A stretch of DNA of 37,936 nt from a virus (IMGVR_UViG_3300037479_000242:1-37936), one strand, 5' to 3'. Shown: positions 217 through 28,296, counted from the first letter of the stretch. Notes: generated from the sequence alone by a model not told the origin. A program made the numbers and translations.

Positions 217-2298
217 TTAATTTACAGATCGGCTTATCTCATACCACGAAGTACCATCGAAAACCAGTTGTAGGACGGTATCATCTGCGCTCGTAAAGGT
301 GCCGGATAGATCTACGGAATTCGCAACATGGGTATTGTCATCAGTCACGGTGACCAGGGCGTCGGCGAAAATCAATGTGAGTAGCTGTCCGTTGGTGGCG
401 CCCGTAATTGTTGCAATCGTGTTGCTACCTGCATCGCCGGTGATCGTCATTACGTTTGAGCTGACGGCAAAGGTGGTCGCACCAGCCCCGAGAGTTAAGT
501 TGGCATTGCGCGTGCCGATTGGACCTTTCGTCGATACCGCCCCAGACTTGTTGAGCATGATAAGATCATTCAAGCCGAGCGCCGCGTAATCGATTTTGAA
601 CTGATCTGAGTCGGAATTGTCCACACCTACGAAAAACTGCTCCTGACCGCGGAACTCAATTGTTGTATCTCCTGGGCCGTCCTGCTCAATGATTATCGCA
701 GCAGCAGTATCTGTGTTGTTCTCGTAAACATGCATGTTTGTCTCGGGGCTGGCTGTGCCAACACCGAGGCGGTTATTTGTGAGGTCGAGCGAAACAATAT
801 CACCAGCAACACCAGCCACTTCGTAGACGTGTGCTTTGTTGCCATCGACAACAATGCGCAAATCCTTTGCTGAAGCCGTCGAATCGATGAGGTCAATCTG
901 TGGCGCAGTGCTGGTAAGCGCTACCACTCCAGCCTCAGTTGCAGAGAGAATTTCTGTTCCGGCACCATCCAGCACTGAGAGCTTGTTAGTACCATCATTG
1001 TTCGCATCAATTTCAATAATGAAATCACTGTCACTATCAAGCTTTGTACCGCTCCCTCCACTGAGGAAACAGTTACCGCTGGTACAATCACCAACAGCAG
1101 TGATGTCGCCTCCGCTATCCTGCTGGGTAAGGTCGCGCCACGCTGTGCCGTCATAGTAATAGAGATTGCCGTCATCATCGTCGGCGTAAAGGTGACCCTC
1201 CGTTGCTGTGGGCGCAGCGCCGCTTTGAGCGGGAATCTCAACTGTGCGATTACTTTTTGCCGCAAAGGCTTTGGTCAATGTGAACGAGCTGCCTGGCGTG
1301 AGGCTTGTATTCGCATATAGTGTAACTTCACCGCTGGCAGCACTCATCAGGCTGGCTGTCGTTGCCTTTGCAATCCAGCTTGTGCCATTCCAGGCAGCAC
1401 CACCTGATACAATTGCCTGACTGGAAGTTGTAGACACAAGGAAACCGCCGTCATCGGCATCGGCAGTACCGAATCGTAGTTGCGTATTGGCTGCTGCTAC
1501 ATCGAGCTGATAATCAGCACCCGTATGACCAATCGCCCACCGGCCGGCATTGTTGATTCGGCCAGCGGACAGCATTGAAGCTGCTTCCCCGTTTGGTCTA
1601 ACTCGAAACTCTAAATAGCCGCCCTGAGTGGGACCAACATGAGCTGCCTGGAGCTGCGCAAGCATTGCACCTGAAGCACCATCGGTAAACCCTAGACGCA
1701 CTGGCGTTCCATCTGCACCATTGGTGGATAGCAACTGTTGCACTGTGGCGTAATTGCCAGCACTGATATCTGCTTCCATCTGAAATGCAGTCTGTGCACC
1801 GCCGAGCGTGCCGCCATTCACATGAACCACCTGGCTGCATGTAGCCCTGTTGATGGCAATACAGTTATTGCTACCATCGATAAATAACATTGATGATTGA
1901 TCGTTGGTTTCAATGCGGGTGTTAGTAGGTAACCCATCGTCATTCAGAACGACCTCGTTTGTACCACCACCATTATTATTTTTGTCGGCTTGCAACTTCA
2001 GATTTGTGTCGCTGGCTAACTCCGTACCTGTGCCACCAGTCTTGAAACATGCACCGCTTGCGCAGTCACCGACATCTGTGATGTCACCTGCACCAGCAAC
2101 ACCGGTAATGTTTACAGGCGCTAGATTGTTCGCATCCTCGAAACACAGACAATCACCTGACACAAACGAATCTGCAGCAGTGCCTGTATTACGTAAACCT
2201 ACGCGATTGTTGAGTTTTACCTCGGCGGCGCTCGCACAGAGGCAACCGAACAACACTAACACTATGGTGTTACGCAGTAGGAGCAATCGCTTTCTCAT
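217..2298 (-). CDS. tail fibre/adhesin-like beta-rich protein with N-terminal signal peptide
   Basis: Likely start is ATG 2298 (MRKRLLLLRNTIVLVLFGCLCASAA/EVKL), which avoids a long overlap with the upstream gene. It is Gly/Thr/Asp-rich with fibre-type motifs (NNRLGVGTASP, GRWAIG, EGHLYADDDDGNLYYYDGTAW, LQLVFDGTSWYEISR) and is the last large gene of the tail module. Confidence 0.75.
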   Translation of the reverse strand: MRKRLLLLRNTIVLVLFGCLCASAAEVKLNNRVGLRNTGTAADSFVSGDCLCFEDANNLAPVNITGVAGAGDITDVGDCASGACFKTGGTGTELASDTNLKLQADKNNNGGGTNEVVLNDDGLPTNTRIETNDQSSMLFIDGSNNCIAINRATCSQVVHVNGGTLGGAQTAFQMEADISAGNYATVQQLLSTNGADGTPVRLGFTDGASGAMLAQLQAAHVGPTQGGYLEFRVRPNGEAASMLSAGRINNAGRWAIGHTGADYQLDVAAANTQLRFGTADADDGGFLVSTTSSQAIVSGGAAWNGTSWIAKATTASLMSAASGEVTLYANTSLTPGSSFTLTKAFAAKSNRTVEIPAQSGAAPTATEGHLYADDDDGNLYYYDGTAWRDLTQQDSGGDITAVGDCTSGNCFLSGGSGTKLDSDSDFIIEIDANNDGTNKLSVLDGAGTEILSATEAGVVALTSTAPQIDLIDSTASAKDLRIVVDGNKAHVYEVAGVAGDIVSLDLTNNRLGVGTASPETNMHVYENNTDTAAAIIIEQDGPGDTTIEFRGQEQFFVGVDNSDSDQFKIDYAALGLNDLIMLNKSGAVSTKGPIGTRNANLTLGAGATTFAVSSNVMTITGDAGSNTIATITGATNGQLLTLIFADALVTVTDDNTHVANSVDLSGTFTSADDTVLQLVFDGTSWYEISRSVN

Positions 2299-5200
2299 AA
2301 TGCGCGGTGATCTTGATCTGCCCAGTGTTACCAACATTAAATATACCTCCTCCGTCCGCCGTGACAATGAAATCAACCGCACTCGCACCGGCACGGAGCA
2401 TATCGAAATTGTTGTCGGTGTCCTCAACCGTTGTGCCGAGTGCGGTTGATTTGCCATTTGCAAACGCATCGGTGGCCCCACTGACACCCAGAGACCACGT
2501 ACCGGCACCACCGGTAATCGTTATGCTAGCGGTGATGATCCGAGCTGTTACGTGTTTCAGTTTCGCACCTGCTGGCAGAACTGCCGTGGCAGTAAGCGTA
2601 CTGGTCCCGCTATTGGCGGTAACTGTAACGGTATTGTGCGCATGCTGAGTACCATGCTCCCGTTCCCCAGGTGCCAAAATGGTATCATGTCCAGCCTGTC
2701 GCATCTCGGTGAAAAAGCCCGTGAATGTAAAGGGTTTCCATCGTGATGGTCGGCGCGTCATCGGATCAACGGGCTCAAATTGCGCTGCATCGAACGAATA
2801 CGTGCCATCGGCCAGATCTAGGACGATGTATGGAAATGCAAAGGCGGTGCGTGTGCCGGCCGGAGGACCAGGCAGATTCGACAAGATTGGTGCGCGAACG
2901 ATAATGTAATATCGTCGCCATCCTAATCCGTTGATGTCCTGAATGGGCGCTTGGCGTCGTGTGGCCGCCGATGAGGATGCTACCAAGCCACCGGTCTCAT
3001 TAAACCACTCCACAATCAACCGAAAGCCTTTGTGAATACTGGCATAAATTGACCAGATATATGTCTGGTCCTCAACGATGCTGATGACACCTCGGTTCGT
3101 CGTCGAGTTGGCGGCAGCGAGTTTCGGTAAGCCTGACCCGATTGTTGTACCGCTGGTAGTGACACTCATGTACCAGCCGCCAATTGCGTTTTTGTCTTCC
3201 GTCGTGTTGAGCGCCGTGATCACACCACTCCCGTTGAATACGGTCCAAAACGGCAGGATTACGGTGTCCGTACCGCTTGGTGCCCCGGCACGCTTGAGCT
3301 GCATAGAGAAATCTGGATGGGGTATAAGATTGTGGGGCGAACCAATAGATGGTCGTTCCACAATGCTCGTAACGTCCGGGTCAGCAATCGTGCTTACATT
3401 GGTTGAATAGATATCCGCATTGTATCCCTCCACAACAAATCGATAGCGTGTAAGGGTCTCATCGATTTCTATGACGCGCTTGTCAGCATCGACAATCGTG
3501 AGTGATGTACCGTCTGCACCTGAATCAACGACCTTCAAGCGAATCAAGTCACCAAGGCTGACGTTCCGACCTTCCATGCCGGTTTCAAATGCATGCTTGT
3601 CATCCGCACGCTTCATGCGTTGCGCTCGATAGTAGAGCCATAATTTTGCCTCGTAGTGTATGCTAGCATTCGCCGGAGAACTATCGTCCCCTGCGCCAGA
3701 GGGGCCAGTTGGGTTTGGTCGTAACCATGGTGATTGCACAAACCTTTGCTCTCCGACTGAGAGCACGGGCATATCTATCTCGTCTTCGTACGCTTGCGGC
3801 TTGAAACGTGCTTCAGCACCATGCTGACGCCCCATCGCGCTATACTGCAAGATCAGACTATCGATTGCATCGGATAGTGCGGTGGTGACCGGCCCCGTGT
3901 AGGTTCCGGGCACGATGTTGTTCCAGTAACCATCATTGAGTCCGAACGTGACCACGGATGCTGCTGCTGCGCTATCAACAGTGATCTCCCATTCGTTGCT
4001 CGCATTCATCGATAGGCGTGCGCCACGAAATGCGAGAATTTCGAGAAGTACGTCAGCAAGACGGCGGAACTGACGATCACCGCCAAGCACACCACGCACG
4101 GCGGTGTTCATGCCGACATCGGAGAACGCTGTCTTCGCTGCTGTGAAGCTCGTTGTGTTCGTTGTTTTGCCTACCGACCACACAGGATCATTCAGAAGAT
4201 CCTCAATGACGTTCGCAGGATTACCTTGCACGGTGCCGGCAATTTGAAGCAGAACCTGTCCTGCTTGGCCGGGGGTGAATAGACGCACGGTTGTCACGCC
4301 TTGATTGGAAGCATCCGCGCCGGTAACTGTGTAACGGCTATCTTCGACGTAAAATTCAGAGGCGATTTCAAGCGTATTAATGGGACTTGCCAGAATGGCG
4401 TCAGCAAGCGTAACCGTAGTCGTCGGCGCTACGTACGACACGACGGTGATCACGCTGTAGGAATACACCGTTGCACCGGCAGACTTTGCGCGCACGGGAC
4501 GACCGACGTCGTAAACATTGTCGTGGCGGCCCGCTTCAGTGAAACTGCTCGCCGTTGCATATGTCGCATCGCTGCGTGTTTCCCAGCTCGCAGCGAGTTC
4601 GAGACCGGGCTGGTCTGGATTGATATCCAGCCATACCTTTTTCACTCGGGTACCATTCAGGCCCGCGAGAAAATCGTCGCCTCCAGGATTTAAAGCATTC
4701 CATACCCCATTGCTACCAACATCAGTTGATACAAAAGGCGGTGACAGAACGGCGTCGTTACCGAAGCCAATGGGAATCGGGGCGCCGATGTCGGTCGGAT
4801 CAGGGAAATCAGCACCATTGACACGAATCGTGGGCACCAGGGTGTCGAGTACCGATGCTTGGGCAGATGTAATCGCAAAACTGATTTCTCCTGGAGCAGG
4901 CAGCGCTTGCTTGATGACACCTACGAAACGCGAAACAAGCTCATGCGTTGTCCGATCGTAACGCCAGAGTTTGCAGGCCACATTGCGCCATTCCGACGCG
5001 GGATTGTACGGTTTTGCGGATGATTCGGTCGGATTGGCCAGTTGCACAACGAAATCAGCTGCAAGATCGATTGCAGCACCGTAGGTTGCTGGCTCCAGGC
5101 TCACGCGACGTACGAGATGAATCTGTTCGGGTCGACGGATGCGTCCAGCGTAGAATGCGCCTAGGACGTCCTCATCAACGTATTCATTGAGGTCCATTGA

Positions 5201-5968
5201 TGCGGAACGCACTGTTCCGCCACCATGATAGACGTCGAAGAGCCATGCTGGTTCGTAATGTGTTCGTTCGGGCACCAGTCGTGCCATGATAGCTGGGTGA
5301 TCCGTCTTGGTCTCACTGCCGACTGTAAATGCCTTTGCACCTGGCTTGACGACAATGCCACCGACCTTGCCACTCACGTAATCGGGCTCTGGTGAGTGAT
5401 TGCCGCGAAGCGGCCAGTAGACGAGTAAGTTTCCTGGGCGAAACTGGTCCGCCGCCATTCCCTGCTGAAGTTGATTCATCTCGTCATCAGAGAGAGCCGC
5501 GGACCAGATCGCAATTTCGGCGATTGCGCCGGCGACATAGCCCGAGCCGCCTGCACTACCAACGTACGTATCACCGCTGTTATTGCCGGTGGTAAAGGTA
5601 ATCGCGCTGTTGATGACCGTTTTCGTACGATTGAGCCATCGCGACCATTCAGCCCCAGCGCCCTGGTACCGGTATGCACACCAAGCGCCGTTCGTCACGT
5701 GCGTAGAGCTAAGTGCAATTGCTGAACCGGTATTTGGATCAGTACCTGTGAATCCGGTAGCAACGAAATCGAGCGAATCGCCCACTGCCTCCCAACGCAC
5801 AGCGAGGGCGTTTGCCGTATGACCGCTCAGCAACAGGGTCTTGCCTACCTGGTTGAGATCGGCCGGCTTGAACCAGAACGAAATGGTAAACGGCCCAGGT
5901 GTTTGATTCAAAAATACGGTAGATGCGAGCGTGCTTTGAGAATCAACGCCATTATACAGACGCGCCAT
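2270..5968 (-). CDS. tail tip/hub protein with N-terminal LamG (ConA-like) domain and C-terminal carbohydrate-binding-like domain
   Basis: 1232 aa. LamG motifs FTISFWFKP and GAIAEIAIWSAALS; hub-like NPANVIEDLL; CBM-like NLIPHPDFS...FDAAQFE. Located after the TMP and Dit genes. Confidence 0.8.
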   Translation of the reverse strand: MARLYNGVDSQSTLASTVFLNQTPGPFTISFWFKPADLNQVGKTLLLSGHTANALAVRWEAVGDSLDFVATGFTGTDPNTGSAIALSSTHVTNGAWCAYRYQGAGAEWSRWLNRTKTVINSAITFTTGNNSGDTYVGSAGGSGYVAGAIAEIAIWSAALSDDEMNQLQQGMAADQFRPGNLLVYWPLRGNHSPEPDYVSGKVGGIVVKPGAKAFTVGSETKTDHPAIMARLVPERTHYEPAWLFDVYHGGGTVRSASMDLNEYVDEDVLGAFYAGRIRRPEQIHLVRRVSLEPATYGAAIDLAADFVVQLANPTESSAKPYNPASEWRNVACKLWRYDRTTHELVSRFVGVIKQALPAPGEISFAITSAQASVLDTLVPTIRVNGADFPDPTDIGAPIPIGFGNDAVLSPPFVSTDVGSNGVWNALNPGGDDFLAGLNGTRVKKVWLDINPDQPGLELAASWETRSDATYATASSFTEAGRHDNVYDVGRPVRAKSAGATVYSYSVITVVSYVAPTTTVTLADAILASPINTLEIASEFYVEDSRYTVTGADASNQGVTTVRLFTPGQAGQVLLQIAGTVQGNPANVIEDLLNDPVWSVGKTTNTTSFTAAKTAFSDVGMNTAVRGVLGGDRQFRRLADVLLEILAFRGARLSMNASNEWEITVDSAAAASVVTFGLNDGYWNNIVPGTYTGPVTTALSDAIDSLILQYSAMGRQHGAEARFKPQAYEDEIDMPVLSVGEQRFVQSPWLRPNPTGPSGAGDDSSPANASIHYEAKLWLYYRAQRMKRADDKHAFETGMEGRNVSLGDLIRLKVVDSGADGTSLTIVDADKRVIEIDETLTRYRFVVEGYNADIYSTNVSTIADPDVTSIVERPSIGSPHNLIPHPDFSMQLKRAGAPSGTDTVILPFWTVFNGSGVITALNTTEDKNAIGGWYMSVTTSGTTIGSGLPKLAAANSTTNRGVISIVEDQTYIWSIYASIHKGFRLIVEWFNETGGLVASSSAATRRQAPIQDINGLGWRRYYIIVRAPILSNLPGPPAGTRTAFAFPYIVLDLADGTYSFDAAQFEPVDPMTRRPSRWKPFTFTGFFTEMRQAGHDTILAPGEREHGTQHAHNTVTVTANSGTSTLTATAVLPAGAKLKHVTARIITASITITGGAGTWSLGVSGATDAFANGKSTALGTTVEDTDNNFDMLRAGASAVDFIVTADGGGIFNVGNTGQIKITAHYEKAIAPTA

Positions 5969-6175
5969 CTACTCGACACCGATCAGCCAGTTGCGAATCA
6001 GTACGCCTATGATTGACCAACCGAGCACTGTGCCGGGCACTAGCATGTACCAAATCAGAATTATCCAGCGCCGTTCCATCTTATAGCCGGGACAGAGCTG
6101 TTCCAAGCAGCGAGGGCAGTGCATTGAGCCGCGCGGTAAGCGACAGGCATGCTTTGTACAATATGCGCGGATCAT
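5969..6175 (-). CDS. small Cys/His (Zn-finger-like) membrane protein
   Basis: CTKH...HCPRCLEQLC followed by a hydrophobic segment. It fills the gap exactly, with an ATGA overlap upstream and abutting the next start. Confidence 0.6.
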   Translation of the reverse strand: MIRAYCTKHACRLPRGSMHCPRCLEQLCPGYKMERRWIILIWYMLVPGTVLGWSIIGVLIRNWLIGVE

Positions 6176-6408
6176 GCGAACTCAGCGGGAATACGGAAGG
6201 GTAGTGGAACTGTACAGCGAACAAGGCCGATTAGTTTCCCATCAATACGCACTGCATATGCGTTCCAATGCGCTACCCAGGACAGATGCACGCTGGCCGG
6301 TCGTATTCGTCCACTCGCTATATCATTGCAGCGTTCCTCAATGCATCGTGGACAGTGCTTCAGCAATCGGGCGAATGCCCCGTGTTTCTCGCAACAATTG
6401 ATGTTCAT
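6172..6408 (-). CDS. small Cys/His (Zn-finger-like) protein
   Basis: CCEKH...HCPRCIEERC; tightly packed in the operon; N-terminus resembles that of 5969..6175. Confidence 0.6.
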   Translation of the reverse strand: MNINCCEKHGAFARLLKHCPRCIEERCNDIASGRIRPASVHLSWVAHWNAYAVRIDGKLIGLVRCTVPLPFRIPAEFA

Positions 6409-14937: not shown

Positions 14938-16011
14938 TCAGTCTGCACAGAACGTTACGCACGTCACCTTCGTTGTGGCGTAGACGGTACACTCGATCAT
15001 GTCACCAGCATCCTCGCATGTGGTGCCCACGGCATTGATTGTTGTCACCGTCGTCACGCCGGCAGCCCCAGCCGTGACGGTGAGAGCCTGTGTTGTGTGT
15101 CCGGTGGTGACATGGAAGACCTTTTTGCTGCCAATGTCCTGGGCATCCAACGCCGCATCGTCGCCGAAATCGACGTCGACCGCATTCGCAGAGGTATCTA
15201 CACTCCACCAGCTCGCAGCCTGGATATTTGCCTTCGTCAAATTCACATCCGCTGCGGAGAGAGCAGCACCGTTTGTACGTCGCACATGCGGAAATGTAGC
15301 GATGCCCGCTGCGGTCACGGACCAGTTATCGTCGGTGATACTCACTGTTGTATCCGTTGCATCGCCGATGGTGATCGTGTCCGCATCGGCATTGCTACCA
15401 ATTGTCACGGTATCGCATGCTGCCGCGTTACAGATACTGACGCTTGTTGCATTTGTGTTTCCGATGTTCACGGCAGCTGCACCGCCAGCATCAAGACCAA
15501 GCGCTGCAGCACCTCCGCTCTGCACGGTCAATGCAGCCGTGGCATCGTTATCTGAAGCAGTAAGCGTAACAGTGCCTGCATCGTTACGTGTGAAATCAAA
15601 CGTCGCGTCGGTCCCCGCATTCAATGACTCGCTATTCTCCAGCGTTAAGCCAGACGTCGCGGCGATTGTAACGGTATCTGCTGCCGACCCTAGCGTCAGT
15701 GTTGCATTACCACCTGGATCAACAGTCATTGCCGCCGTGGCATCATTATCCGAACTTGTAAGCGTGACTGCTCCAGCATTATTGCGAGTGAAATCGAAGG
15801 TTGCATCCGTATCCGTATTCAACGATTCGCTATTGGCCAGCGTGATACCACCAGTGCCGCTCATCGTGACACCACCAGCAATACTGATTGTTGAACCAGA
15901 CGGTACGGTCAGCTTATCGGAAAATACATGCTCGCCACGGTGGCGTTGAAGAGCGTAAGCAGTTGCACCGAATGCGACGATTATTGCTACCAACACCAGG
16001 AATTTGCGCAT
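14938..16011 (-). CDS. head fibre/decoration-like beta-repeat protein with signal peptide
   Basis: GGGAG RBS; MRKFLVLVAIIVAFGATAYA/ signal peptide; Thr/Ala/Asp-rich; internal duplication; 6 Cys; located between the capsid and adaptor genes. Confidence 0.75.
   Translation of the reverse strand: MRKFLVLVAIIVAFGATAYALQRHRGEHVFSDKLTVPSGSTISIAGGVTMSGTGGITLANSESLNTDTDATFDFTRNNAGAVTLTSSDNDATAAMTVDPGGNATLTLGSAADTVTIAATSGLTLENSESLNAGTDATFDFTRNDAGTVTLTASDNDATAALTVQSGGAAALGLDAGGAAAVNIGNTNATSVSICNAAACDTVTIGSNADADTITIGDATDTTVSITDDNWSVTAAGIATFPHVRRTNGAALSAADVNLTKANIQAASWWSVDTSANAVDVDFGDDAALDAQDIGSKKVFHVTTGHTTQALTVTAGAAGVTTVTTINAVGTTCEDAGDMIECTVYATTKVTCVTFCAD
15495..15846 (-). repeat. intragenic tandem duplication, 198-bp (66-aa) period
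   Basis: TLANSESLNTDTDATFDFTRNNAGAVTLTSSDNDATAAMTV versus TLENSESLNAGTDATFDFTRNDAGTVTLTASDNDATAALTV. Confidence 0.85.
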
Positions 16012-16240: not shown

Positions 16241-16412
16241 GCTGCTGTCCTCTTCGTCGCTTGTCGGTCTCTGGTATGTAGCGAATGTAGCGCTGATCAA
16301 TCAGCTTCTCGCGATTGCGCCACGTATTTGCACGATGCGTATCCACGACGTCACCCGGTTTCAACGACGGCTGTTTATCCGCTTCAAACGCTTTAAGAAC
16401 TACGTACGGCAT
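16224..16412 (-). CDS. small capsid-adjacent hypothetical protein
   Basis: TGATG overlap with the MCP stop. MPYVVLKAF...LKPGDVVD resembles small proteins commonly found after MCP genes. Confidence 0.65.
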   Translation of the reverse strand: MPYVVLKAFEADKQPSLKPGDVVDTHRANTWRNREKLIDQRYIRYIPETDKRRRGQQHGTQA

Positions 16413-17362
16413 CAGGTCGTAGCCTCATTGAAGAAATAGCCGAGGTCGGGCGCGACAATCTTGTTATCCAACGCAAGCTCGCCCTCGATACGGTCTGCCG
16501 CAAGGTTCTCCATGCGAAACCGTTTGATTCTCAGCCCGTCAGTAGAACCAAGCAGACCACGCCATACGAATGTGTAGCCAGCGCTTGGCGCCAAGAGACC
16601 CGGTGATGGCTGCACAAAGCAAAGCAACGCATCTTGCGAATCAATGCCGAATGACATCGCCGCCGTCTCGCCCTCCACATTGGTAGCCTTTACGGACATG
16701 GCGACTTTCAGCATATCAACGCCGAGCACGCGAGCGATCATATCCTCGCTGATAGACTCCGCGGTCGTGTGTTTGTAGCGATCAACGATGTCCGGATGAT
16801 GTTTGAGATAGCGAAACACATCATAGCCACATACCAGCATGTTCGGCAGGAAGCCCGTGTTCAACAGGATGGTGCGCTTGCCGGTTTCGATATCGGTGAT
16901 TGGATCACTAGTACCATAGGCGCTCCATAGGTTGGCAGGAGTCACATCAGTATCCCAGACGCCGGTAGCAAACGCATCAGACTGGAATTGCGCTTCACGA
17001 CGTACCAAAAGACGTTGCGTCACAAATTGCGTCGCATCGCGATCAGGATTCAGTGGCGAATCCGTGTTGGCGCGTGTCTGATCTCCGACGTCTTTGTGAA
17101 TCGCAAACACGTCACATGAGTATGTGGCAGTCGAAAGCCCGTAGCCTGAACCAACAGATTCTGTGCTATCGGCTCGCACCTTCGCTTCGTCACGGAACCA
17201 GTCGTTCTTGGTATACGTGAAGTATTTGTCCGTTTGCTTTTCAACCGCTACGATCGGGAATACCTGTGTCGCGATGAATTGCGACTGGGACTGCAAATAC
17301 GCAACGCTGATATTCGTCAATACCGCATCCACATGGACATCACTACTCGTTGGTTGAGGCAT
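16412..17362 (-). CDS. major capsid protein (major capsid E-like, HK97 fold)
   Basis: 316 aa with AAGGAGGAG RBS; VDAVLTNISVAY...FIATQVFP, SDPITDI, LKHHPDI and DLGYFF motifs. Confidence 0.92.
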   Translation of the reverse strand: MPQPTSSDVHVDAVLTNISVAYLQSQSQFIATQVFPIVAVEKQTDKYFTYTKNDWFRDEAKVRADSTESVGSGYGLSTATYSCDVFAIHKDVGDQTRANTDSPLNPDRDATQFVTQRLLVRREAQFQSDAFATGVWDTDVTPANLWSAYGTSDPITDIETGKRTILLNTGFLPNMLVCGYDVFRYLKHHPDIVDRYKHTTAESISEDMIARVLGVDMLKVAMSVKATNVEGETAAMSFGIDSQDALLCFVQPSPGLLAPSAGYTFVWRGLLGSTDGLRIKRFRMENLAADRIEGELALDNKIVAPDLGYFFNEATT

Positions 17363-17385: not shown

Positions 17386-17778
17386 TTACCTTGCTCGATG
17401 CGGATTCGCGCAGTTTACCAGTGCCGTAGCAAGACCTGCCGCCGCAGTACTAGCGATCAGCACCTGACCAGTGACGTATTCGGTTGTATCGATACCCGGC
17501 GTTTTGGCGTCGGCTTGACCATCAGCGCTGGTGCCAATCAGATCGCCGATCGTGAGGGCAGCATCGGACGACACCTTGGTCATGCCGTAGACCAAGATTT
17601 CGGCCGCTTTGCCAAGAGCGTTCGGTTTGTTCTGGAGCACACCAACCGGCACATCTGTTGCTCCGGTGCACGTCGTCGCGCGACCGTTTGAGTCGAGTTT
17701 CATGAAATAGTACTGCTTGGCAGATAGATCTTCAGCAGCTTCCAAGGTGATACAGAAACTAGGTTGCTCAACAGCCAT
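17386..17778 (-). CDS. capsid cement/decoration protein (DUF2190-like)
   Basis: EAAEDL...VGVLQNKP...IGDLIGTSADGQA; strong RBS; directly upstream of the MCP gene. Confidence 0.8.
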   Translation of the reverse strand: MAVEQPSFCITLEAAEDLSAKQYYFMKLDSNGRATTCTGATDVPVGVLQNKPNALGKAAEILVYGMTKVSSDAALTIGDLIGTSADGQADAKTPGIDTTEYVTGQVLIASTAAAGLATALVNCANPHRAR

Positions 17779-19487: not shown

Positions 19488-19520
19488 CGCGGTACAAGCG
19501 CCACTACCAATGTGAGGCGT

Positions 19521-19664: not shown

Positions 19665-19692
19665 AAAAATGAAGGCCCATGCCGCTTTTTTC

Positions 19693-19720: not shown

Positions 19721-19726
19721 CTGATT

Positions 19727-20170: not shown

Positions 20171-20313
20171 AAATCGAGGACGCAGAGGAGCGGTGGGAAA
20201 GTTGTGACCTCCCCGAAGACGGGGAGGATCACGTTGCGTGCTGCACATGCGGCACGCATATCCCGGTGGACGAAGCCAGCGAGCAGGGGCTTTGTCGCGA
20301 ATGCGAGCCCTGA
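20167..20313 (+). CDS. small acidic zinc-finger protein
   Basis: ATGA overlap with the HNH gene and GGGAG RBS; CCTCG...LCREC. Confidence 0.6.
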   Translation: MKIEDAEERWESCDLPEDGEDHVACCTCGTHIPVDEASEQGLCRECEP

Positions 20314-20430
20314 CTGCGCGGTGGGAGTGTTGAGGCAATCCCCTACACTGCTGGCCGTCTGGAAGAGCCCCTGGGGCGCGGTGCTCGGCGCCGAGGCGCG
20401 CGCATCACGAAGATAATCGAAGAAGCTCTC

Positions 20431-20589
20431 GTGATTCCATCTACCTGCCCCACCCACGGCCGCCCTCTGATCTGCCCCGCGTGCATCGGGGCCAAGGGCG
20501 GCAAGGTAAAGTCAAACCGCAAAACGCGGGCGGTCCGACGCAACGCGAAGCGACCACGGAAGCGGCAGACAAAAGGAGAGCAGCAATGA
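20431..20589 (+). CDS. small basic protein with CxxH...CxxC and KGG-type tail
   Basis: Not in the ORF track (52 aa, GTG start): MIPSTCPTHGRPLICPACIGAKGGKVKSNRKTRAVRRNAKRPRKRQTKGEQQ. The start is uncertain. Confidence 0.55.
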   Translation: MIPSTCPTHGRPLICPACIGAKGGKVKSNRKTRAVRRNAKRPRKRQTKGEQQ

Positions 20590-20593
20590 AGAA
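20558..20593 (+). repeat. 36-bp direct repeat, copy 1 (RBS + start)
   Basis: GGAAGCGGCAGACAAAAGGAGAGCAGCAATGAAGAA, 1 mismatch to 21453-21488. Confidence 0.9.
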
Positions 20594-20646
20594 AGAGCTC
20601 ATGCGCTATCAGGCAAGATAAGCGCCGGGTTCGTGAAGGAGGAGAC

Positions 20647-21450
20647 ATGAACAACACGGCAATCAACTGGACGCAATACACCTGGAACCCAGCCTCAGGC
20701 TGCGAGGTGATCACCGAGGGCTGTAAATATTGCTACGCAAAAACCCTCGCAGAAAACCGACGTGGCACACCGGCATTCCCTAACGGCTTCGACCTCACGA
20801 TTCGACCGCATAAGCTCAACGAGCCGCTGAAGCTCAAGCGGCCGAGCCTGATCTTCGTCAACTCGATGAGCGACCTCTTCTGGGAGAAACTCCCGGAGGA
20901 CTACCGCGACCAGATCATCGACGTCATCGAAGCCACCCCGCAGCATCAGTACCAAGTGCTGACGAAGCGCCCGGAACGAATGCTCGCCTATTCGCAGCGC
21001 CGGAAGCTGCCGCCGAACTTCTGGGCCGGCGCAACCATCGAATCGAACCGGCATGCTGGTCGCGCAGACTTGCTTCGGCAGATCGCTGTGCCGATCCGAT
21101 TCATCAGCGCGGAACCGATTCTCGACGACCTTACCCAGCTCGACCTTGCCGGCATTCAATGGCTCATAACGGGCGGGGAGAGCGGGCTGCACTTGCGCGA
21201 TGCTTCAATCCGCGCTCGACGTGGGCTAGCTGAGCCAATCAACGGCAAGTGGCAACCACGCAGTGATCGATATCATTGGATCACGCAGCTTGTCGACGCA
21301 ACACGCCTGAGCGGCACCGCCATGTGGCACAAACAATGGGGGGGCCCTACGCCCCACTCGGCAGGTCGGCTGGTGGACGGTCGGACGTGGGATGAGATGC
21401 CAACAACACCGCTGCCCAGTACATCACAGACCCTCGCAACGGTGACCTGA
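20647..21450 (+). CDS. phage Gp37/Gp68 family protein (DUF5131, radical-SAM-like)
   Basis: INWTQYTWNPASGCEVITEGCKYCYA, IFVNSMSDLF, YQVLTKRPER, FISAEP, WLITGGESG, KQWGG, GRTWDEMP. Confidence 0.93.
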   Translation: MNNTAINWTQYTWNPASGCEVITEGCKYCYAKTLAENRRGTPAFPNGFDLTIRPHKLNEPLKLKRPSLIFVNSMSDLFWEKLPEDYRDQIIDVIEATPQHQYQVLTKRPERMLAYSQRRKLPPNFWAGATIESNRHAGRADLLRQIAVPIRFISAEPILDDLTQLDLAGIQWLITGGESGLHLRDASIRARRGLAEPINGKWQPRSDRYHWITQLVDATRLSGTAMWHKQWGGPTPHSAGRLVDGRTWDEMPTTPLPSTSQTLATVT

Positions 21451-21452
21451 CT

Positions 21453-21488
21453 GGAAGCGGCAGAAAAAAGGAGAGCAGCAATGAAGAA
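21453..21488 (+). repeat. 36-bp direct repeat, copy 2
   Basis: GGAAGCGGCAGAAAAAAGGAGAGCAGCAATGAAGAA. Confidence 0.9.
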
Positions 21489-21876
21489 GACGCAAGTCGA
21501 AATCGGTGCTACATACATCGCCAAGGTCAGCGGCATGAGGGCCTTGTCCATTCGTCAGCCTTGGGGCTCCCTAATTGTGAAGGGCTACAAGGATGTTGAA
21601 AACCGCACCTGGCGTACGAGTTATCGAGGGCCACTACTCATTCATGCCGCATTGCGGTTGGACCCTAAGGGTTTCGAATTCGCGCACAGTCTCGGAATTG
21701 ATATTCTGCCCGAGGATTGCCCGCGCGGCGGGATCATCGGTATGGCCGAGCTTGTTGACTGCGTTACTCACCACCCCTCGGCGTGGTGGCGTGGTCCGTT
21801 CGCATTCGTCCTTGCCAACGTTGAACAATTACCCTTCAGGCCGCTCCGAGGTCGTTTGGGTATTTTTCCCGCATGA
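21481..21876 (+). CDS. ASCH domain protein
   Basis: ALSIRQPW...GYKDVENRTWRTSYRGPLLIHA...GGIIG...RGRLGIF. Confidence 0.92.
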   Translation: MKKTQVEIGATYIAKVSGMRALSIRQPWGSLIVKGYKDVENRTWRTSYRGPLLIHAALRLDPKGFEFAHSLGIDILPEDCPRGGIIGMAELVDCVTHHPSAWWRGPFAFVLANVEQLPFRPLRGRLGIFPA

Positions 21877-22332
21877 ACTGCAACAACGTTTATTGCCGTA
21901 CCAGAAATCGCCACAATGACCGCAGTGGTGAACCCTGCAACGTGTTGCTAGCCCGCTTGCCGCCACCGAGAGTAAATTAAAACTTGGCACGCTAGGTACA
22001 CCCAAGTCAACATTGGAGCGTACCACAATGTCAACACGCCCAGCGAACTCCGCCAACAAGGCCCGCATGGGCTGCGGGTCACTGACCGAGTACCAGGCGT
22101 GTACGACCAAAAAGCCTACATGGTCGCACTCGATCAACCAATCCACGCAACGCTCGATACCGCGTGGCCACTTCCCACCACTTAGATCAATTGCGTAGCG
22201 TAGTTCGGGAATGGCGTCCATTGTAGCCATCATTAAGCCTGCACCAGTGGCTAGCAACATGCCCTTTCCGTGCCGTCCATAATCGATGACGGGAACCTGA
22301 TGCATGCGAATTATTTGCTCTGCTGAGATCAC
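21829..22332 (-). CDS. hypothetical protein with C-terminal Zn ribbon
   Basis: GTG 22332 just after the ABC-GNAT stop; CGHC...CSSC; convergent overlap with ASCH. Confidence 0.55.
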   Translation of the reverse strand: MISAEQIIRMHQVPVIDYGRHGKGMLLATGAGLMMATMDAIPELRYAIDLSGGKWPRGIERCVDWLIECDHVGFLVVHAWYSVSDPQPMRALLAEFAGRVDIVVRSNVDLGVPSVPSFNLLSVAASGLATRCRVHHCGHCGDFWYGNKRCCSSCGKNTQTTSERPEG

Positions 22333-22342
22333 GTGTGATCGA

Positions 22343-23455
22343 TCACGCCGTGAAACTAAGTGCAGCGGCTTTGTCCTCCCAGGGCGGACCAATGTATTCC
22401 CAGGATGATGTCAAGCGGTTGAACGCATGGGCTATCCGTCGACTACCCCCGTCCATTCCAGCTAATCCCATCGCGCGGCGCATTCTCCAAAGTTCCGGAT
22501 GCCGTTTGCGGTATGCAATAAACGACGGATGCGACGTGGTGTTGATTACGCGGCATCCCGTTGCCCGATACGCACCGGCAATAGTCTCAACAAGGACATT
22601 CCCAATCCCCAAACCCTGAAAGTCTGGCAGGACCACCGTTCGAGTGGCCCTCCGAATCCGGTGGTGCGTATGACCCACAAATGCCAGCCAGGCAGAAAAC
22701 GCAACGGGCCGATTCTCAATCCATGCACAGTAACAGTGTGCACTTCGGTTCAACCTTCCGCTTAAATAATGATGGTGTGCGAAAAGTTTCCACGACGAAT
22801 AATGCACTCGTGCAATTTCGAGTTTGATGGGAGGCCGTCCTTGAAGGGACCTCCAAACGAACTGCTGGTCTGGTAACCGGTAGACCCAATCGGGTTGCAG
22901 CCACTCTTCAATGTCTTCATGACACGTTATCGCAATTAGTTTTTGGCCGCGTCGTCTTACCACTTTTGCAATCGCAAAACTCCCTATCCGTGCAACCTGC
23001 CGATCCACAACGCTAGTAAACTCGTCCACTACCGCAAGCTCCGGCAGCTCCGCAAGCAAGCGCGCCATTGTGACACGAAACTGTTCTCCGTAACTCAATA
23101 CACTATACGGCCGCAGCCACGAAGGTGGGCTTGAAAATCCCACCGCACTAAGAAGTGCCACGATGTCCTTAATGGATAGCGTGGCAGGAAATGCATCAAC
23201 GATACTGCGGTCGGTCGGCCAATCGAACTGTCTATCCATAAGATCTGGCCATACTCGGCGAGCGATCGTGGTTTTGCCACTGCCTGATGGACCCACGATC
23301 AGTCCAACATTCCACGGCTTCTCCTCCAGCGGCAGATTCACGGTCCACCTTAACTCTACACGGTCGGCCGGCGGAACATCAAACATTCCCTCTAGTTGAA
23401 TAACTCGTGCCGTACGAATGATTGGACTCCCAATCACGATATCAACGCTCGGCAT
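22343..23455 (-). CDS. ABC-type ATPase fused to GNAT acetyltransferase (predicted DNA-modification enzyme)
   Basis: Walker A GPSGSGKT, signature LSYGEQFR, Walker B VVDEF, H-loop ITCH; GNAT motif A RTVVLPDFQGLGIG; no transmembrane segments. Confidence 0.88.
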   Translation of the reverse strand: MPSVDIVIGSPIIRTARVIQLEGMFDVPPADRVELRWTVNLPLEEKPWNVGLIVGPSGSGKTTIARRVWPDLMDRQFDWPTDRSIVDAFPATLSIKDIVALLSAVGFSSPPSWLRPYSVLSYGEQFRVTMARLLAELPELAVVDEFTSVVDRQVARIGSFAIAKVVRRRGQKLIAITCHEDIEEWLQPDWVYRLPDQQFVWRSLQGRPPIKLEIARVHYSSWKLFAHHHYLSGRLNRSAHCYCAWIENRPVAFSAWLAFVGHTHHRIRRATRTVVLPDFQGLGIGNVLVETIAGAYRATGCRVINTTSHPSFIAYRKRHPELWRMRRAMGLAGMDGGSRRIAHAFNRLTSSWEYIGPPWEDKAAALSFTA

Positions 23456-23967
23456 ACGAACCCTTCCACCGACAATCGCTCAATCAATCGCAACTGTTCG
23501 GTTTCACTGATACAGGTTACAACAACAAGAAATTGTGATGTCGGTTCAGATACTTGCCGCGCATCCACAGGAAACATTTGCCCCAGCAATGTTTTCACTT
23601 CAGCGGCATCAAATATCCCGTCCAGACTCACCAGTTTCAGCTCCTTCAACACATTCAGATCCCACTCTGCCAACTCCGCCGTCCGGTTATCGTACAGAGC
23701 AAGCCGCGTCTTCTGCTCCGGCGTCAGCCCGGTTCGTCGAACAGCGACGATCTCCTTGCCGTCAGTCTCGATGACACGTACACGCTCGATGCCAGCTGCG
23801 CTCGCCGCCTCAATGGTCGCATTGCCCGCTAGCACAGTGCCGTTTTCGTCGATTACGATGGAGCGCGCTGCGCCAACCTCGCGCAACGCTTGCTCAATCA
23901 TGCCGATATTGCGAGGCGTGTGTTTTCTCGCGTTCTTTGAATCGGGCTTCAGGTTGGTAAGCTTCAT
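23434..23967 (-). CDS. ParB-like N-terminal domain protein
   Basis: LKPDSKNARKH, SIVIDENGTVLAGN, LALYDNRTAELAEWD; ATG at 23967. Confidence 0.85.
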   Translation of the reverse strand: MKLTNLKPDSKNARKHTPRNIGMIEQALREVGAARSIVIDENGTVLAGNATIEAASAAGIERVRVIETDGKEIVAVRRTGLTPEQKTRLALYDNRTAELAEWDLNVLKELKLVSLDGIFDAAEVKTLLGQMFPVDARQVSEPTSQFLVVVTCISETEQLRLIERLSVEGFVCRALIS

Positions 23968-24001
23968 GCAGTTTGCACTATCGACCAAGCGCAATATGTC
24001 A

Positions 24002-24208
24002 TCAGAATGGAGGCTCAGCAATTCGCTTAACACCCAGCTGTTCACGAAAATCCGCAAACACCTTGCCCCCCTCATTGCAGCGAAAGCTCAACTCAAAGGC
24101 TGACGTATTCTCCAAGCGGTCCTCGATTTCAATGATCCATTGGAGCATTACTGATGCGCGTCTGCCAAGGGTATGGGCATGTCCATCGAGAACGACTGTG
24201 GCAATCAT
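24002..24208 (-). CDS. hypothetical protein
   Basis: ATGA overlap with the minor head gene stop; GAGAGG RBS. Confidence 0.55.
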   Translation of the reverse strand: MIATVVLDGHAHTLGRRASVMLQWIIEIEDRLENTSAFELSFRCNEGGKVFADFREQLGVKRIAEPPF

Positions 24209-25068
24209 GCCGCCTCTCGTCTGCCCTGTGGTCGCAACACCACTACACACCGACACGATGGATGCAACGGTGGCTCAGCATCGTCGGGAAATGATTCGTC
24301 CATACCGACCTCAACGCCATCAAGCTGCGCGCAATCCTCATCGGTGGCAGAGTCATTGACAGCAATCCACACGCGCGTTGCCTCATCACGCTCAAACAAG
24401 CCCTGGTCGGCCGCCTGTTCCCATGCTTCACGAATTCCCGCATTACCAGCAATCGATGCCTCGGTGCGTGCAATCATGAGCGCGCGCACTTGAATCAGCT
24501 CCCGTGCATAGCGTGCCAATCGTGCATCGATTGTTGATTGCGCTATTCCCTGTGCTGCCAACTCTGCACCGCGGTTCATGACCGCTCGGGCATGAGGCTC
24601 CGTTAAACCAACGAGCGGTTTGATTAGCCGGGCCGTACGGACAGCCGCAAGACCCTGACGCTGCGCTTCAACGAGAACATGCCGCACACCCTCCCGCGTA
24701 CCATTACTGATGTTTGTGATTCGTTCTCCTCCGGCCCGCTCGAGGAATGCCAACGCACGCCTGTCGGTGATACTGAAAGAGGCATCAAACGGCAACAATC
24801 GCGCCGCTGCCCGTCCTGATTCTTCATATACGTCGCGCACATTGCGTACGAACTGATCCCGCAATACCGGTTCGGCAATCTCCTCCCAGGGCACGGCGCG
24901 CGCCGCGTCAGCAAGATCGCCTTCGAGAAGCGCGCGCTGCACCTCGGCCGTGCTCACCGCCTGTCGTGTTCGCGCAATGGCGGTAAGCACCGCGCGGCGT
25001 AGTTCGGGTTCCGCGCGCGTTGCAATGCGATGCACAGCGCGCCACTGACGTTCACGCGGGAGCGCCAT
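24205..25068 (-). CDS. minor head protein (Mu gpF/SPP1 gp7 family)
   Basis: RALMIARTEA, CAQLDG, PPLHPSCRC; downstream of the portal gene. Confidence 0.9.
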   Translation of the reverse strand: MALPRERQWRAVHRIATRAEPELRRAVLTAIARTRQAVSTAEVQRALLEGDLADAARAVPWEEIAEPVLRDQFVRNVRDVYEESGRAAARLLPFDASFSITDRRALAFLERAGGERITNISNGTREGVRHVLVEAQRQGLAAVRTARLIKPLVGLTEPHARAVMNRGAELAAQGIAQSTIDARLARYARELIQVRALMIARTEASIAGNAGIREAWEQAADQGLFERDEATRVWIAVNDSATDEDCAQLDGVEVGMDESFPDDAEPPLHPSCRCVVVLRPQGRREAA

Positions 25069-25255
25069 CGTTCCAACATGTGAGACGCACTACACGACGC
25101 GATATCAAATACGGTTCAAGCGCAGCCGACTCTTGTAGCGCAACCGCGCATGAGGCCTTGTCTGCAAACGGACCGACGGCCGTGAAACGGACGCCGTCAT
25201 GGGCGACGGACAAAAATCCGAACCACCACGCCATCATCCCAATGCACCATTTCAT
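25052..25255 (-). CDS. small hypothetical protein, possibly exported
   Basis: GAGGAGG RBS and ATGA overlap with the portal stop; hydrophobic N-terminus; GPF...C...C. Confidence 0.6.
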   Translation of the reverse strand: MKWCIGMMAWWFGFLSVAHDGVRFTAVGPFADKASCAVALQESAALEPYLISRRVVRLTCWNDGAPA

Positions 25256-26640
25256 AGGCGCCCTCCTCGCAACTCAGCACGAATCATGCGGGCTAACGGC
25301 TGACGTTTTCCCACTTCTCCCTCTCCCTCATCCTGCTCGATCGGTAGACCTGCGTATCCGAGTAACCGATTGAGCAACGGACCCTCCATAAAGAGAGGCG
25401 ACAGCGCATTAGCGTTAGCAAGCGCGGTGATGTATTGCCCTAACTCTTGTAAATTCGGTGTCTCGATATCGCCCCGCTTGAGGGTTGGCATGGCGGTCAC
25501 ATTAAGCCCGTTCAGTCGGATCAGGCGCGGAATCGCATGTCGATTGAACGTCGCCAACAACGCATCGTAATAGCCGGCCAGCGCCAATGCAAATACCGAC
25601 GTGCGGGCTGACACGAGTGCAAACGAACCAACGTTCTCGTGTCCGAGGAACAGGAAATCCGCGAACATGCTCATTGCCATCTCACGCGATAGCCGAGTGA
25701 TCGTAGCTTGAATGTCTGAGCGACCACGACCCGGAGACGTTAGCAACGATAGATCGAACAGAAGCTGCCCACTGTCCGGATCCCGATCACTCGGGATAAG
25801 TGCACATTCCTGCTCATCACGTTTGAGATTGCGTCCCATCCTGCGAAGTGCATCGCGCGTCGCCGCCTTTTCACCGGTTGCGGAATCTGAAAGCACATCT
25901 GCCGGCGCACGAAGCACGGGCAGGCCAGTTAGGTCTCTATCGGTGCCAATGACCTCGATCTCGCGTAGGCGACGCACGAAAAAATAATTGATGAAAGCAT
26001 TGCGAAGAATCGAACGGCCTTCGGGGTTGCCACGATTTGCCTGCGTGCGGAATAGCAGTGCGCGCTCGATGGGGATGAAACGCAAAACATAATCCGGTGC
26101 CGGACGCTGCCACATGCCCTGCACCCCGCCCGTATCGTCTAACTCCCAGCGATCGAGAGATTCCTGCGCACGCGGTGCGAATTTCCGCCACCCAATCAAC
26201 CCGTCGTTGTAACGTGAATTGCGAGTTGGATCGCGGCTCTCACCCTCACGCCGCTTGTAGACGATCTCTGAATAATCCCACCCAAACGGTAAGAACGTGA
26301 GCCATTCGGACAACGTGTCGGACCAAGTCAGACTCATATCATCGAGGGCTGTAGTCACGAGCATCTTGGCGCGCTCATCGTCCTGTGTACTGCCGCTCGT
26401 TTCGACCCAGACAGAGACGCGGCGCATATATTGCAGAATAGTTTGCCCAGCGGCGCCGATAATCGGATCGTTGTCCCACATCTCGCGAAACATTTTGCGG
26501 CCGCGCTCGTCACGCAGCTCGCGCAGAAACTCCTGCGTCACGCGGCCCTGCCAGTGCTCCAGGCCCGAGGCACCGATTTCCGTAAATGGGTTAGGGGGCG
26601 TTGGTTGTTGCTTCAATGCGCGTACCTTGCCGTTACTCAC
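25252..26640 (-). CDS. portal protein (DUF935/Mu gp29-like)
   Basis: GTG 26640 follows AAAGGAGGTG. Motifs FGWDYSEIVYK, NPEGRSILR, GSFAL, NRHAIPRLIRLN. Confidence 0.9.
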   Translation of the reverse strand: MSNGKVRALKQQPTPPNPFTEIGASGLEHWQGRVTQEFLRELRDERGRKMFREMWDNDPIIGAAGQTILQYMRRVSVWVETSGSTQDDERAKMLVTTALDDMSLTWSDTLSEWLTFLPFGWDYSEIVYKRREGESRDPTRNSRYNDGLIGWRKFAPRAQESLDRWELDDTGGVQGMWQRPAPDYVLRFIPIERALLFRTQANRGNPEGRSILRNAFINYFFVRRLREIEVIGTDRDLTGLPVLRAPADVLSDSATGEKAATRDALRRMGRNLKRDEQECALIPSDRDPDSGQLLFDLSLLTSPGRGRSDIQATITRLSREMAMSMFADFLFLGHENVGSFALVSARTSVFALALAGYYDALLATFNRHAIPRLIRLNGLNVTAMPTLKRGDIETPNLQELGQYITALANANALSPLFMEGPLLNRLLGYAGLPIEQDEGEGEVGKRQPLARMIRAELRGGRL

Positions 26641-27080
26641 GTCGTCACCTCCTTTCTCAATGTGAATGTGCCGGCCGCTAGGCGCCACACGCGACTATCC
26701 GATGTACGGGTGATCTCCAGGTCCCATATTATACGCAGCCATCCCGTATATGCAGCAGTGTGTGTGGCCGTCCGTACAATCGTGATATTCGGCGCAATAG
26801 CCGCCAGCGTTATGCCATCACTGTTGGAAAGCGATATTACTGTGCTCGCGCTGGTAAATGTTTGTCTCGCCTTAAGCACAGCGGTGTATCCGGTGCTAAG
26901 ATCCAGCACGGCTTGCGTTTCGTCTTTCCACGTGATTGGCAGCGCAAGCGTAGCGCCTTGCGTGATCGGAATATCACCGAGCCATGCGGCAATTAGCGTT
27001 GGTGTGAATGTTTGAATTGTCACACCGTCGGCCGTCCACTCAATCCGAGATTCAAGACTTTGAGCTTTCTCGTAGGACAT
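26637..27080 (-). CDS. BppU-N-like Ig-fold virion/adaptor protein
   Basis: ATG 27080 (TAATG overlap). ITQGAT...LDLSTGYTAVLKAR...WDLEI...VWRLAAGTFTLRKEVT is a pattern common in phage tail adaptors. Confidence 0.7.
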   Translation of the reverse strand: MSYEKAQSLESRIEWTADGVTIQTFTPTLIAAWLGDIPITQGATLALPITWKDETQAVLDLSTGYTAVLKARQTFTSASTVISLSNSDGITLAAIAPNITIVRTATHTAAYTGWLRIIWDLEITRTSDSRVWRLAAGTFTLRKEVTT

Positions 27081-27490
27081 TATGGCCACCGGGGAATCTC
27101 GAACACCTTTGCTCGCACTAGAATCACCACATCGCACCTGGGTTTGTTGCCATCGTTGTCTGTCGCTGTGATCGTCACAACGTAGTTGTTCCCGTTCCGC
27201 GTCGTGCCCGGGTCCACGGTGAAATCCACGTTCGGGGTGGTCACCTGTGGTCCGTTGGTGATGAGGGCCGCTGGATTGCCGTCCGTCTGTGGCCCACTGA
27301 TTTTCGTCACCGATGCTGTCGCAGTCGATACGGTGCGACCCGGGAACGAACAGCCGAGGGTTTCCTTTTCGTTTGGTTGCAGTACCCAAACCAAATCTGC
27401 CCCTCCCACGTGCGGCGGTGGTCGTTCTTGCGCTTCCCCGATCGACGACCACCATGCCAAGAAAAGACAGGCAAGCAGATTCAATTTCAT
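27080..27490 (-). CDS. beta-sandwich (fibre-adaptor-like) protein with signal peptide
   Basis: ATGA overlap; MKLNLLACLFLAWWSSIGEA/QERPP; GNNYVVTITATD; 2 Cys in the mature part. Confidence 0.7.
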   Translation of the reverse strand: MKLNLLACLFLAWWSSIGEAQERPPPHVGGADLVWVLQPNEKETLGCSFPGRTVSTATASVTKISGPQTDGNPAALITNGPQVTTPNVDFTVDPGTTRNGNNYVVTITATDNDGNKPRCDVVILVRAKVFEIPRWP

Positions 27491-28296
27491 GGAATCACGG
27501 CTCTCTCTGGTTTCGACCGTATAGCACGATCGGGCTTGGCAATACCACCACGTGGTGGTTTCAAAATCATCGTGCGTTTGGCTGGTTTGCCAACGGTCGG
27601 CGTTGCAGTTGGTGTCGGTGTGATTGTTGGCGTTGAGCTTACAGTAAAGGTCTGCGTTGGTGTATGCGTGATTGTTGGCGTAGGCGTTGGCGTGGGACCG
27701 TCGTGACAGATTGCAATCTGCATGAGGTCCACCGAGCACGTAGCCTGCGTGCCGGTCAGGTTGTGCACCGCGAGTGCGGCCCCGAAACCAGCCGTGTTGA
27801 CCACGCTCAGCGACCCGACAGGACTGCAGGTGACCGCGTTGCACCATGGCGCGCCACACACATCCTGAAATGTGTTGACCACGTCGCCAGCATCAGCAAT
27901 CCACAATTCGCCGTCCGACAAATCACAGGCAGCATTATCACTGACAATCCCACTGATGACCGGAAACACCTCCTCCACGACGCAGTTGGCTCCGGCAGCA
28001 TTGCCTTCAATGCGCACTTCCGCCCAAGATATCAACGTTCCGTTCGGAATAGCGAAACCGAAGCTGGTACATTTCAGCCACTCTGAGTTATCGTTAGTGA
28101 GAACAACCTGCGCATAGAGATTATCACTGACCGTCGCATTTGAGGTGCTCGTCCACTCCGGATTGGTGCCCGTGTTACCATTGTCATTCACGCAAGTGCC
28201 CGCAGAACGCACCTCGAGCGTTTGCATGCACGTAAGTGCTGCTGCCCTCGATGTCACGAGTAGCAGCAGCGCAAGATGGCGACACAGGCTCTTCAC
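27487..28296 (-). CDS. exported Cys-rich beta-sandwich protein with Pro/Thr-rich linker
   Basis: GTGA overlap with the terL stop (alternative ATG 28308); (M)KSLCRHLALLLLVTSRAAA/LTC; 10 Cys in the mature part; PTPTPTITHTPT linker at about 27595-27696; basic tail. Confidence 0.75.
   Translation of the reverse strand: MKSLCRHLALLLLVTSRAAALTCMQTLEVRSAGTCVNDNGNTGTNPEWTSTSNATVSDNLYAQVVLTNDNSEWLKCTSFGFAIPNGTLISWAEVRIEGNAAGANCVVEEVFPVISGIVSDNAACDLSDGELWIADAGDVVNTFQDVCGAPWCNAVTCSPVGSLSVVNTAGFGAALAVHNLTGTQATCSVDLMQIAICHDGPTPTPTPTITHTPTQTFTVSSTPTITPTPTATPTVGKPAKRTMILKPPRGGIAKPDRAIRSKPERAVIP

Follow-up and report, generated by a model that had tools for sequence, protein, structure and literature searches.

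Leader-bearing proteins in head-spike, neck-collar and tail-fibre slots as probable exported virion appendages of an uncultured long-tailed phage

The assembly of tailed-phage virions is regarded as an entirely cytoplasmic process. Analysis of the virus record IMGVR_UViG_3300037479_000242, all 37,936 bases of which are referred to here as the window, has identified four minus-strand genes, g217, g14938, g27080 and g27487, that lie in the head, neck and tail positions of a long-tailed-phage morphogenesis cluster and whose products begin with leaders of the signal-peptide type. We consider it probable that these four genes encode virion appendages that are exported by the general secretory (Sec) pathway, disulfide-bonded and docked on finished particles at lysis. 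The occurrence of leaders and even cysteine counts on head-spike, neck-collar and tail-fibre slots makes extracytoplasmic folding likely for these outer parts, which would then become attached to the particle only at or after lysis. The set encoded is likely to comprise a head spike, a neck-collar adhesin with an immunoglobulin (Ig) adaptor and a tail fibre, all of them outer, host-contacting parts. The feature is real and conserved; its parts are known virion folds and its new element is the export route.

Leaders were called with a home-made heuristic rule, not a trained predictor, that was set before the controls were seen and that calls for an uncharged core of nine residues with a mean hydropathy of at least 2.0, a non-negative n-region and a small-x-small cleavage site. 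The rule is passed by 4 of the 25 morphogenesis genes in the window, which are exactly g217, g14938, g27080 and g27487, versus 4 of 234 distinct core-protein homologues in 80 related loci. It is passed by 1 of 58 distinct post-capsid genes in these loci, which carry a related capsid and are the 80 kept of 538 matches. All four leaders have a basic n-region, a hydrophobic core and a small-x-small site, and with a slash marking the predicted cleavage they read MRKRLLLLRNTIVLVLFGCLCASA(A)/EVKL in g217, MRKFLVLVAIIVAFGATAYA/LQRH in g14938 and MKLNLLACLFLAWWSSIGEA/QERPP in g27080, while that of g27487 ends in RHLALLLLVTSRAAA/LTCM. The mature parts hold 8 (g217), 6 (g14938), 2 (g27080) and 10 (g27487) cysteines, all even numbers. 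Both the leaders and these counts agree with the original prediction, which had been made from the DNA alone. Its possible fifth exported candidate, a 67-residue minus-strand open reading frame (ORF) at 25052..25255, fails the rule and is not supported.

The translation starts have been considered for each gene. The g14938 start is supported by an AGGGAG before its ATG, and beyond the hydrophobic core no further start is met until codon 50. The starts of g27487 and g27080 are supported by overlap with upstream stop codons (GTGA and ATGA). In g27080, however, an internal TTG at codon 33 (window 27392-27394) lies behind a GGAGG and, compared by eye, lines up with the GP4 gp77 start; a signal-less, cytoplasmic isoform is therefore possible beside the exported form. 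No clear ribosome site precedes g217, the start of which overlaps the end of a tail gene; a database call of this protein begins at V13, still ahead of the hydrophobic core. Residues 16-19 of g217 read LFGC, a loose and not a strict lipobox.

The case for export is best developed for g14938 (14938..16011), a 357-residue predicted head spike or fibre that consists of a 20-residue leader (15952-16011), a repeat shaft and a C-terminal knob (~14941-15294). A leader is present in 51 of 51 proteins matched in a first search (query included), and across these proteins the charge, the hydrophobicity and the small-x-small end are kept while the sequence is not. Adding a profile search (best 150 of 267) gave a family of 180 proteins, 156 of which have a leader, with the misses being mostly fragment-like and two having near-threshold leaders; a strict lipobox occurs in 3 of the 180, g14938 not among them. 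The cysteines of g14938 fall into pairs, C332-C355 and C341-C351 in the knob and C194-C199 in the shaft. Among 56 knob sequences, which leave out four of the 60 knob-list proteins that have another tip domain (P0088, P0157, P0166 and P0182), 34 have the complete C332-C355 pair, 21 have neither cysteine and 1 has only one of the two (55/56 covary), while for C341-C351 the corresponding numbers are 45, 11 and 0 (56/56 covary), these counts being made without regard to kinship among the sequences. An even number of mature cysteines is found in 110 of the 120 leader-bearing family members shorter than 700 residues (3 of them have none), whereas 14 of the 21 signal-less head-slot proteins have an odd count of one. 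Leader conservation and covarying cysteine pairs thus make the predicted export and disulfide bonding of g14938 well supported. Export and disulfides of g217 and g27487 are argued from the window's own sequence and one partial homologue each.

The fold of the g14938 knob is that of a known virion part. An AlphaFold monomer is confident in the knob only, with a shaft predicted local distance difference test value of 50-70, and places C341 and C351 on the two adjacent last strands. In structural comparisons it matches best the corresponding knob of gp52, the capsid spike of Pa223 (Z 10.0, root-mean-square deviation 3.0, 99 aligned residues; Foldseek E 7e-5, 12% identity), followed by domains of T4 gp9/gp10 and CBA120 TSP4 with Z of 7.0-8.7; by sequence the g14938 profile matched no solved structure. 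The Pa223 spike is a trimer anchored on the capsid by its N-terminal residues 2-41 (10.1101/2025.06.11.659172; this and the other reports cited here by identifier are drawn on for the passages available). The solved gp52 (PDB 9NY6) shares with g14938 the knob fold and the predicted order of N-terminal anchor, beta shaft and knob, the head location of g14938 being suggested by its slot. The two differ in that the gp52 model begins at residue 2 and the available text of its report does not contain the words "signal" or "disulfide", whereas g14938 has a leader and paired cysteines. In related phages the equivalent head slot is occupied by signal-less, cysteine-poor proteins, and three (P0011, P0013 and P0077) of the 50 knob proteins with a leader have the N-terminal motif of these signal-less post-capsid proteins directly after the cleavage site. 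Genes of the g14938 family also occur in phage head modules at L150/L151 (one phage), L082 and L083; at L081 the family gene closes a module of podovirus-like type. Cultured phages gave no tblastn match to g14938 or g27080, and IMG/VR scans with g14938 alone or together with the portal returned no loci.

Several other observations concern the head slot and its relatives. In three other phages the gene after the exported knob gene (L082:9129-9542, L083:661-1068 and L150:10355-10792) encodes a signal-less protein of ~135-145 residues, which is absent from the window. The short knob proteins P0075, P0105, P0107, P0152 and P0079 have in common another mature N-terminus, which is helical with an "RLxIAFxD" motif and is perhaps a second type of capsid anchor. 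Freshwater phages whose capsid belongs to the same family as that of the window (L008, L010-L012 and others) have a separate signal-bearing, cysteine-containing gene of ~170-200 residues, located after the tail-terminator gene in the neck-tail region.

At the neck, two predicted exported proteins adjoin a signal-less one. The first, g27487 (27487..28308, starting at GTG 28296 or ATG 28308), is a 10-cysteine beta-sandwich protein in which the sandwich is followed by a Pro-Thr linker and then by four short basic repeats that form the C-terminal tail (27490-27600). Its domain has a signal-less homologue with one cysteine at the N-terminus of an MW202473 virion gene (pairwise E 1e-14). By eye the tail repeats resemble the RTLVV stretch near the end of a 325-residue GP4 protein that we take as the rope, and by this analogy the tail of g27487 may be a rope as well; the GP4 rope protein interlocks with an Ig collar (PMC12609058). 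The neighbouring g27080 (27080..27490) has a 20-residue leader and is modelled as an Ig sandwich, for which the nearest entries in the Atlas are Gp77 clusters (template modelling score, TM, 0.63/0.82). Its fold is of the type seen in Ig neck collars, namely GP4 gp77 (8JOU/PF23148), the Bas63 collar-whisker and A1002/KPP25 gp33 (PMC13730344, PMC12609058), even though BLAST gives no significant match between g27080 and GP4 gp77 and no homologue was present among 42 protein-search candidates. The nine GP4 proteins tested and the KPP25 collar, rope and beads are without leaders, whereas the Ig protein and the rope-bearing adhesin of the window have them. A1002 gp41, the first ~30 residues of which are absent from the virion map, was considered as a signal-peptide protein and rejected, as its KPP25 counterpart has no signal peptide.

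The third gene of this cassette, g26637 (26637..27080, minus strand), is signal-less and cysteine-free. The original prediction had called it BppU-like and proposed it as the docking adaptor; the label is better replaced by that of a neck-collar family (phrog_1084, E 1.6e-11), and it is this collar homology that fits a docking role, binding to the exported proteins being putative. The protein is homologous to the adaptor-binding domain I of the A1002 collar gp33 and aligns with the 197-residue KPP25 counterpart of that collar, ORF087, at 25% over 84 residues (pairwise E 4.5e-6), while a PDB-wide search gave E 0.4 only. The A1002 collar gp33 rings the head-tail adaptor, and collars provide fibre attachment sites in DEV and GP4 (PMC13730344). 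By analogy, g26637 may be a cytoplasmic docking ring, and the exported g27487/g27080 pair may meet this collar at the neck. Complex prediction of g26637 with mature g27080 and the g27487 tail scored 0.00 in two runs made without controls, and has no bearing either way on binding.

The same arrangement is found in a distant phage, G001, the capsid and portal of which are 41% and 46% identical to those of the window and which keeps the exported head protein. Before terS, G001 has an exported Pro-Thr-linker adhesin, an exported Ig protein and a signal-less collar in the same order as the window. Its Ig protein matches g27080 with E 7e-14, keeps the leader and has no start behind it within 60 codons; its signal-less collar matches g26637 with E 1e-9. 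The G001 adhesin is a protein of 1296 residues with a leader, 22 cysteines, Pro-Thr linkers and a C-terminal PRVL-type repeat tail. It could not be aligned with the g27487 domain, so that the two have in common the leader, the linker and the type of tail only.

At the tail, g217 (217..2298) is a predicted exported tail-fibre-like protein of 693 residues with a 24-25-residue leader and a fibre-tip C-terminus. Its eight mature cysteines form four close pairs and include a duplicated GDITxVGDCxSGxCF module. The last 124 residues (570-693) match the phrog_33904 tail fibre with E 8e-11, and the match to the ReqiPepy6/Poco6 tail fibre is at 36-38%. One partial homologue has both a leader and the GDITxVGDCxxGxCF pair; G001-G003 hold no homologue.

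A cultured precedent is provided by Cellulophaga phage phi10:1, whose gp091-gp094 are annotated as structural by tandem mass spectrometry (GenBank KC821618 record). The leader rule is passed by all four of these proteins and by the pectate lyase next to them, versus none of ten core structural proteins of the same phage; gp096 fails. The parallel with the window lies in tail-end proteins of a long-tailed phage that have classical leaders, here annotated as structural. The case differs in that gp091-gp094 have no recognised homology to the window proteins, have 0-2 cysteines and are confined to the tail. Virion proteins with Sec leaders are known from the filamentous phages, in which pIII and pVIII are exported and pIII is disulfide-bonded in the periplasm. 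Unlike the proteins considered here, these are membrane-anchored and assembled during extrusion, whereas the core of the window phage is a cytoplasmic HK97-type head, portal and tail. Additionally, disulfides occur in the neck, collar and fibre hubs of the Milano, Bas63 and crAss001 virions (PMC10491603, PMC12609058, PMC10172136). These are mainly inter-subunit bonds between core proteins, and the available passages on Milano and crAss001 do not mention a signal peptide (PMC10491603, PMC10172136). A literature search at the level of titles and abstracts, with most subscription papers outside it, found no description of Sec-exported structural appendages of tailed phages.

From these comparisons a sequence of events can be proposed. 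The four genes would be expressed late together with the head and tail genes, as the observed gene order and overlapping stop codons suggest, and their products, with their conserved leaders, would be exported by Sec and cleaved by signal peptidase. Disulfides would then form, consistent with the cysteine covariation observed in the g14938 family. Fold, slot and homologues suggest that the freed N-terminus of g14938 would dock on the capsid, that g27487 would bind the Ig domain of g27080 through its C-terminal repeats, that this pair would attach at the neck, next to g26637, the collar protein without a leader, and that g217 would dock on the tail tip. Docking would take place when lysis mixes the compartments. 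Fibres and decorations can join finished particles late, P22 tailspikes being an example. In its widest form, the proposal is of a second, extracytoplasmic branch of morphogenesis, in which the periplasm is the site where head spike, neck adhesin and tail fibre arise, as disulfide-bonded modules taken from the same repertoire as bacterial surface fibres. At lysis these modules would snap onto the capsid, the tail tip and a collar ring of cytoplasmic origin, and the infectious particle would be completed only outside the cytoplasm. We regard the chances for and against this wider scheme as about even.

A number of points weigh against docking of exported appendages on the virion. The phage is uncultured and known from sequence alone, so that virion incorporation is a prediction, and detection of the phi10:1 proteins by mass spectrometry could reflect co-purification. 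Because the Milano, Bas63 and crAss001 virions have disulfides, disulfides alone need no export; the covariation counts take no account of kinship. For g14938, the capsid-anchor motif carried by the three homologues is not significant in the protein itself, and the relation between exported and signal-less knob profiles is weak (E 0.034, 1 of 60 shuffles as high, probability 10%). In g27080, the GP4 fibre-tail adaptor 8jou_B ranks fifth among generic Ig matches in the PDB (TM 0.71 by target length), neither the protein nor its homologue matches PF23148 (Gp77) at E<=1, and the possible dual start could yield exported and cytoplasmic forms. Retention of leaders and cysteine pairs in homologues, which the original prediction proposed as a check, is seen in the g14938 family, while for g27080 its one homologue keeps the leader and has its cysteines at other positions. 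Finally, the shaft repeat of g14938 (CNSAACD) is common to large secreted cellular proteins, and no phage core gene was found beside the cellular genes that carry it.

This last observation bears most directly on the alternative that export serves to place the proteins on or around a host cell that is infected or lysogenic, as adhesins, receptor blockers or agents of superinfection exclusion that were captured from bacterial surface fibres and are merely housed in late operons. The shaft repeat was found at 36 cellular loci, 23 of them in Patescibacteria (or subgroups) and 12 proteobacterial, and 14 of 17 viral or metagenome loci inspected show large proteins in a cell-like context. The giant surface fibres of Patescibacteria (L113-L148) share the repeat, the leaders and the cysteine pairs with the g14938 family and differ in having mostly many hundreds to 4400 residues and a cellular gene context; the other window proteins have no match in L084-L148. 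Display on the cell would also suit the adhesin layout with Pro-Thr linkers that is seen in both g27487 and its G001 equivalent and the three lipoproteins in the g14938 family, and secreted (sheath-like) proteins of archaeal viruses have been proposed to act on the host envelope (PMC11576556). However, a strict lipobox is limited to those three, a signal-less head protein fills the same slot in related phages, each slot shows a virion fold, the neck cassette adjoins a signal-less collar in two lineages, and the phi10:1 proteins are annotated as structural. We therefore judge display on the cell to be unlikely; of the two fates named in the original prediction, slot, fold and cultured precedent favour addition to the virion.

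The same leaders would be accounted for if the exported proteins were set free when the cell lyses and acted as decoys, matrix modifiers or tethers that do not attach to the particle, and signal peptides have been noted on flavophage proteins with lyase domains (PMC8776804). Interaction with the particle is a prediction, which leaves room for this alternative, but the anchor motif behind the leader in three homologues and the conserved coupling with the collar gene make it improbable. We find it highly improbable that assembly is completed at or through the membrane, by non-lytic egress or membrane-associated assembly, with the exported parts added there before release: a Pfam scan of 51 window ORFs recognised no lysis gene, but the contig is cut at both ends, so that lysis genes possibly lie outside the window, and the core genes are all ordinary and signal-less. 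Least room is left for leaders that are not export signals at all, being instead uncleaved hydrophobic anchors or products of mis-called starts. The use of a home-made rule and the TTG of g27080 speak for such false leaders, which are nonetheless hard to credit given the preserved leader character in 51 of 51 matches, the lack of an alternative start in the G001 homologue of g27080 and the pairing of cysteines that follows the leader. The original prediction is partly supported: export and oxidative folding are well supported for g14938, the leader of g27080 is kept in its one homologue, and for g217 and g27487 both remain predictions from the window's own sequence and one partial homologue each.

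The remainder of the minus-strand cluster is that of a long-tailed phage, with terminase, portal, gpF-like head protein, capsid, adaptor, neck, tape-measure and tail-tip genes. The major capsid protein (16412..17362; phrog_1005, E 2e-87) is the predicted binding site of g14938, and the tail-tip protein of 1232 residues (2270..5968), which has a LamG-like N-terminus, is a candidate binding site for g217. These two proteins, a small head gene (17386..17778), the portal (25252..26688) and the terminase large subunit (28293..29846) are all on the minus strand and without leaders. In phrog_673 the domain of the small head gene is fused to the knob of signal-less head-slot proteins. The window has no terminal repeat and an ORF is cut at its left end. 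This ORF (1-197, minus strand) is very hydrophobic, lies behind g217, and has last residues that resemble the end of a signal peptide; it could be holin-like or another exported protein. Two small cysteine-rich ORFs with HCPRC motifs and no Pfam or PHROG match lie between tail genes at 5969-6408. A non-structural block at 19500-24260 splits the head module between the gpF and protease regions, with an HNH nuclease, DUF5131 and ASCH on the plus strand and an ABC-ATPase/GNAT fusion and an ORF that is ParB-like by eye on the minus strand. The GC content rises to 0.62-0.70 at 30500-33000, and the stretches at ~19620-19720 and ~31510-31670 appear near-identical in opposite orientation, as judged from similar ORF starts and ends.

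If docking of exported appendages at lysis is correct, then lysis would be the last step of assembly, and host export and disulfide-bond (Dsb) genes would be factors on which the phage depends. Phages would gain disulfide-stabilised adhesins that can be swapped with bacterial surface fibres. Many uncultured phages would have their receptor-binding proteins overlooked wherever annotation rules set aside signal-bearing genes as non-structural. As phi10:1 is cultured, the idea is testable now.

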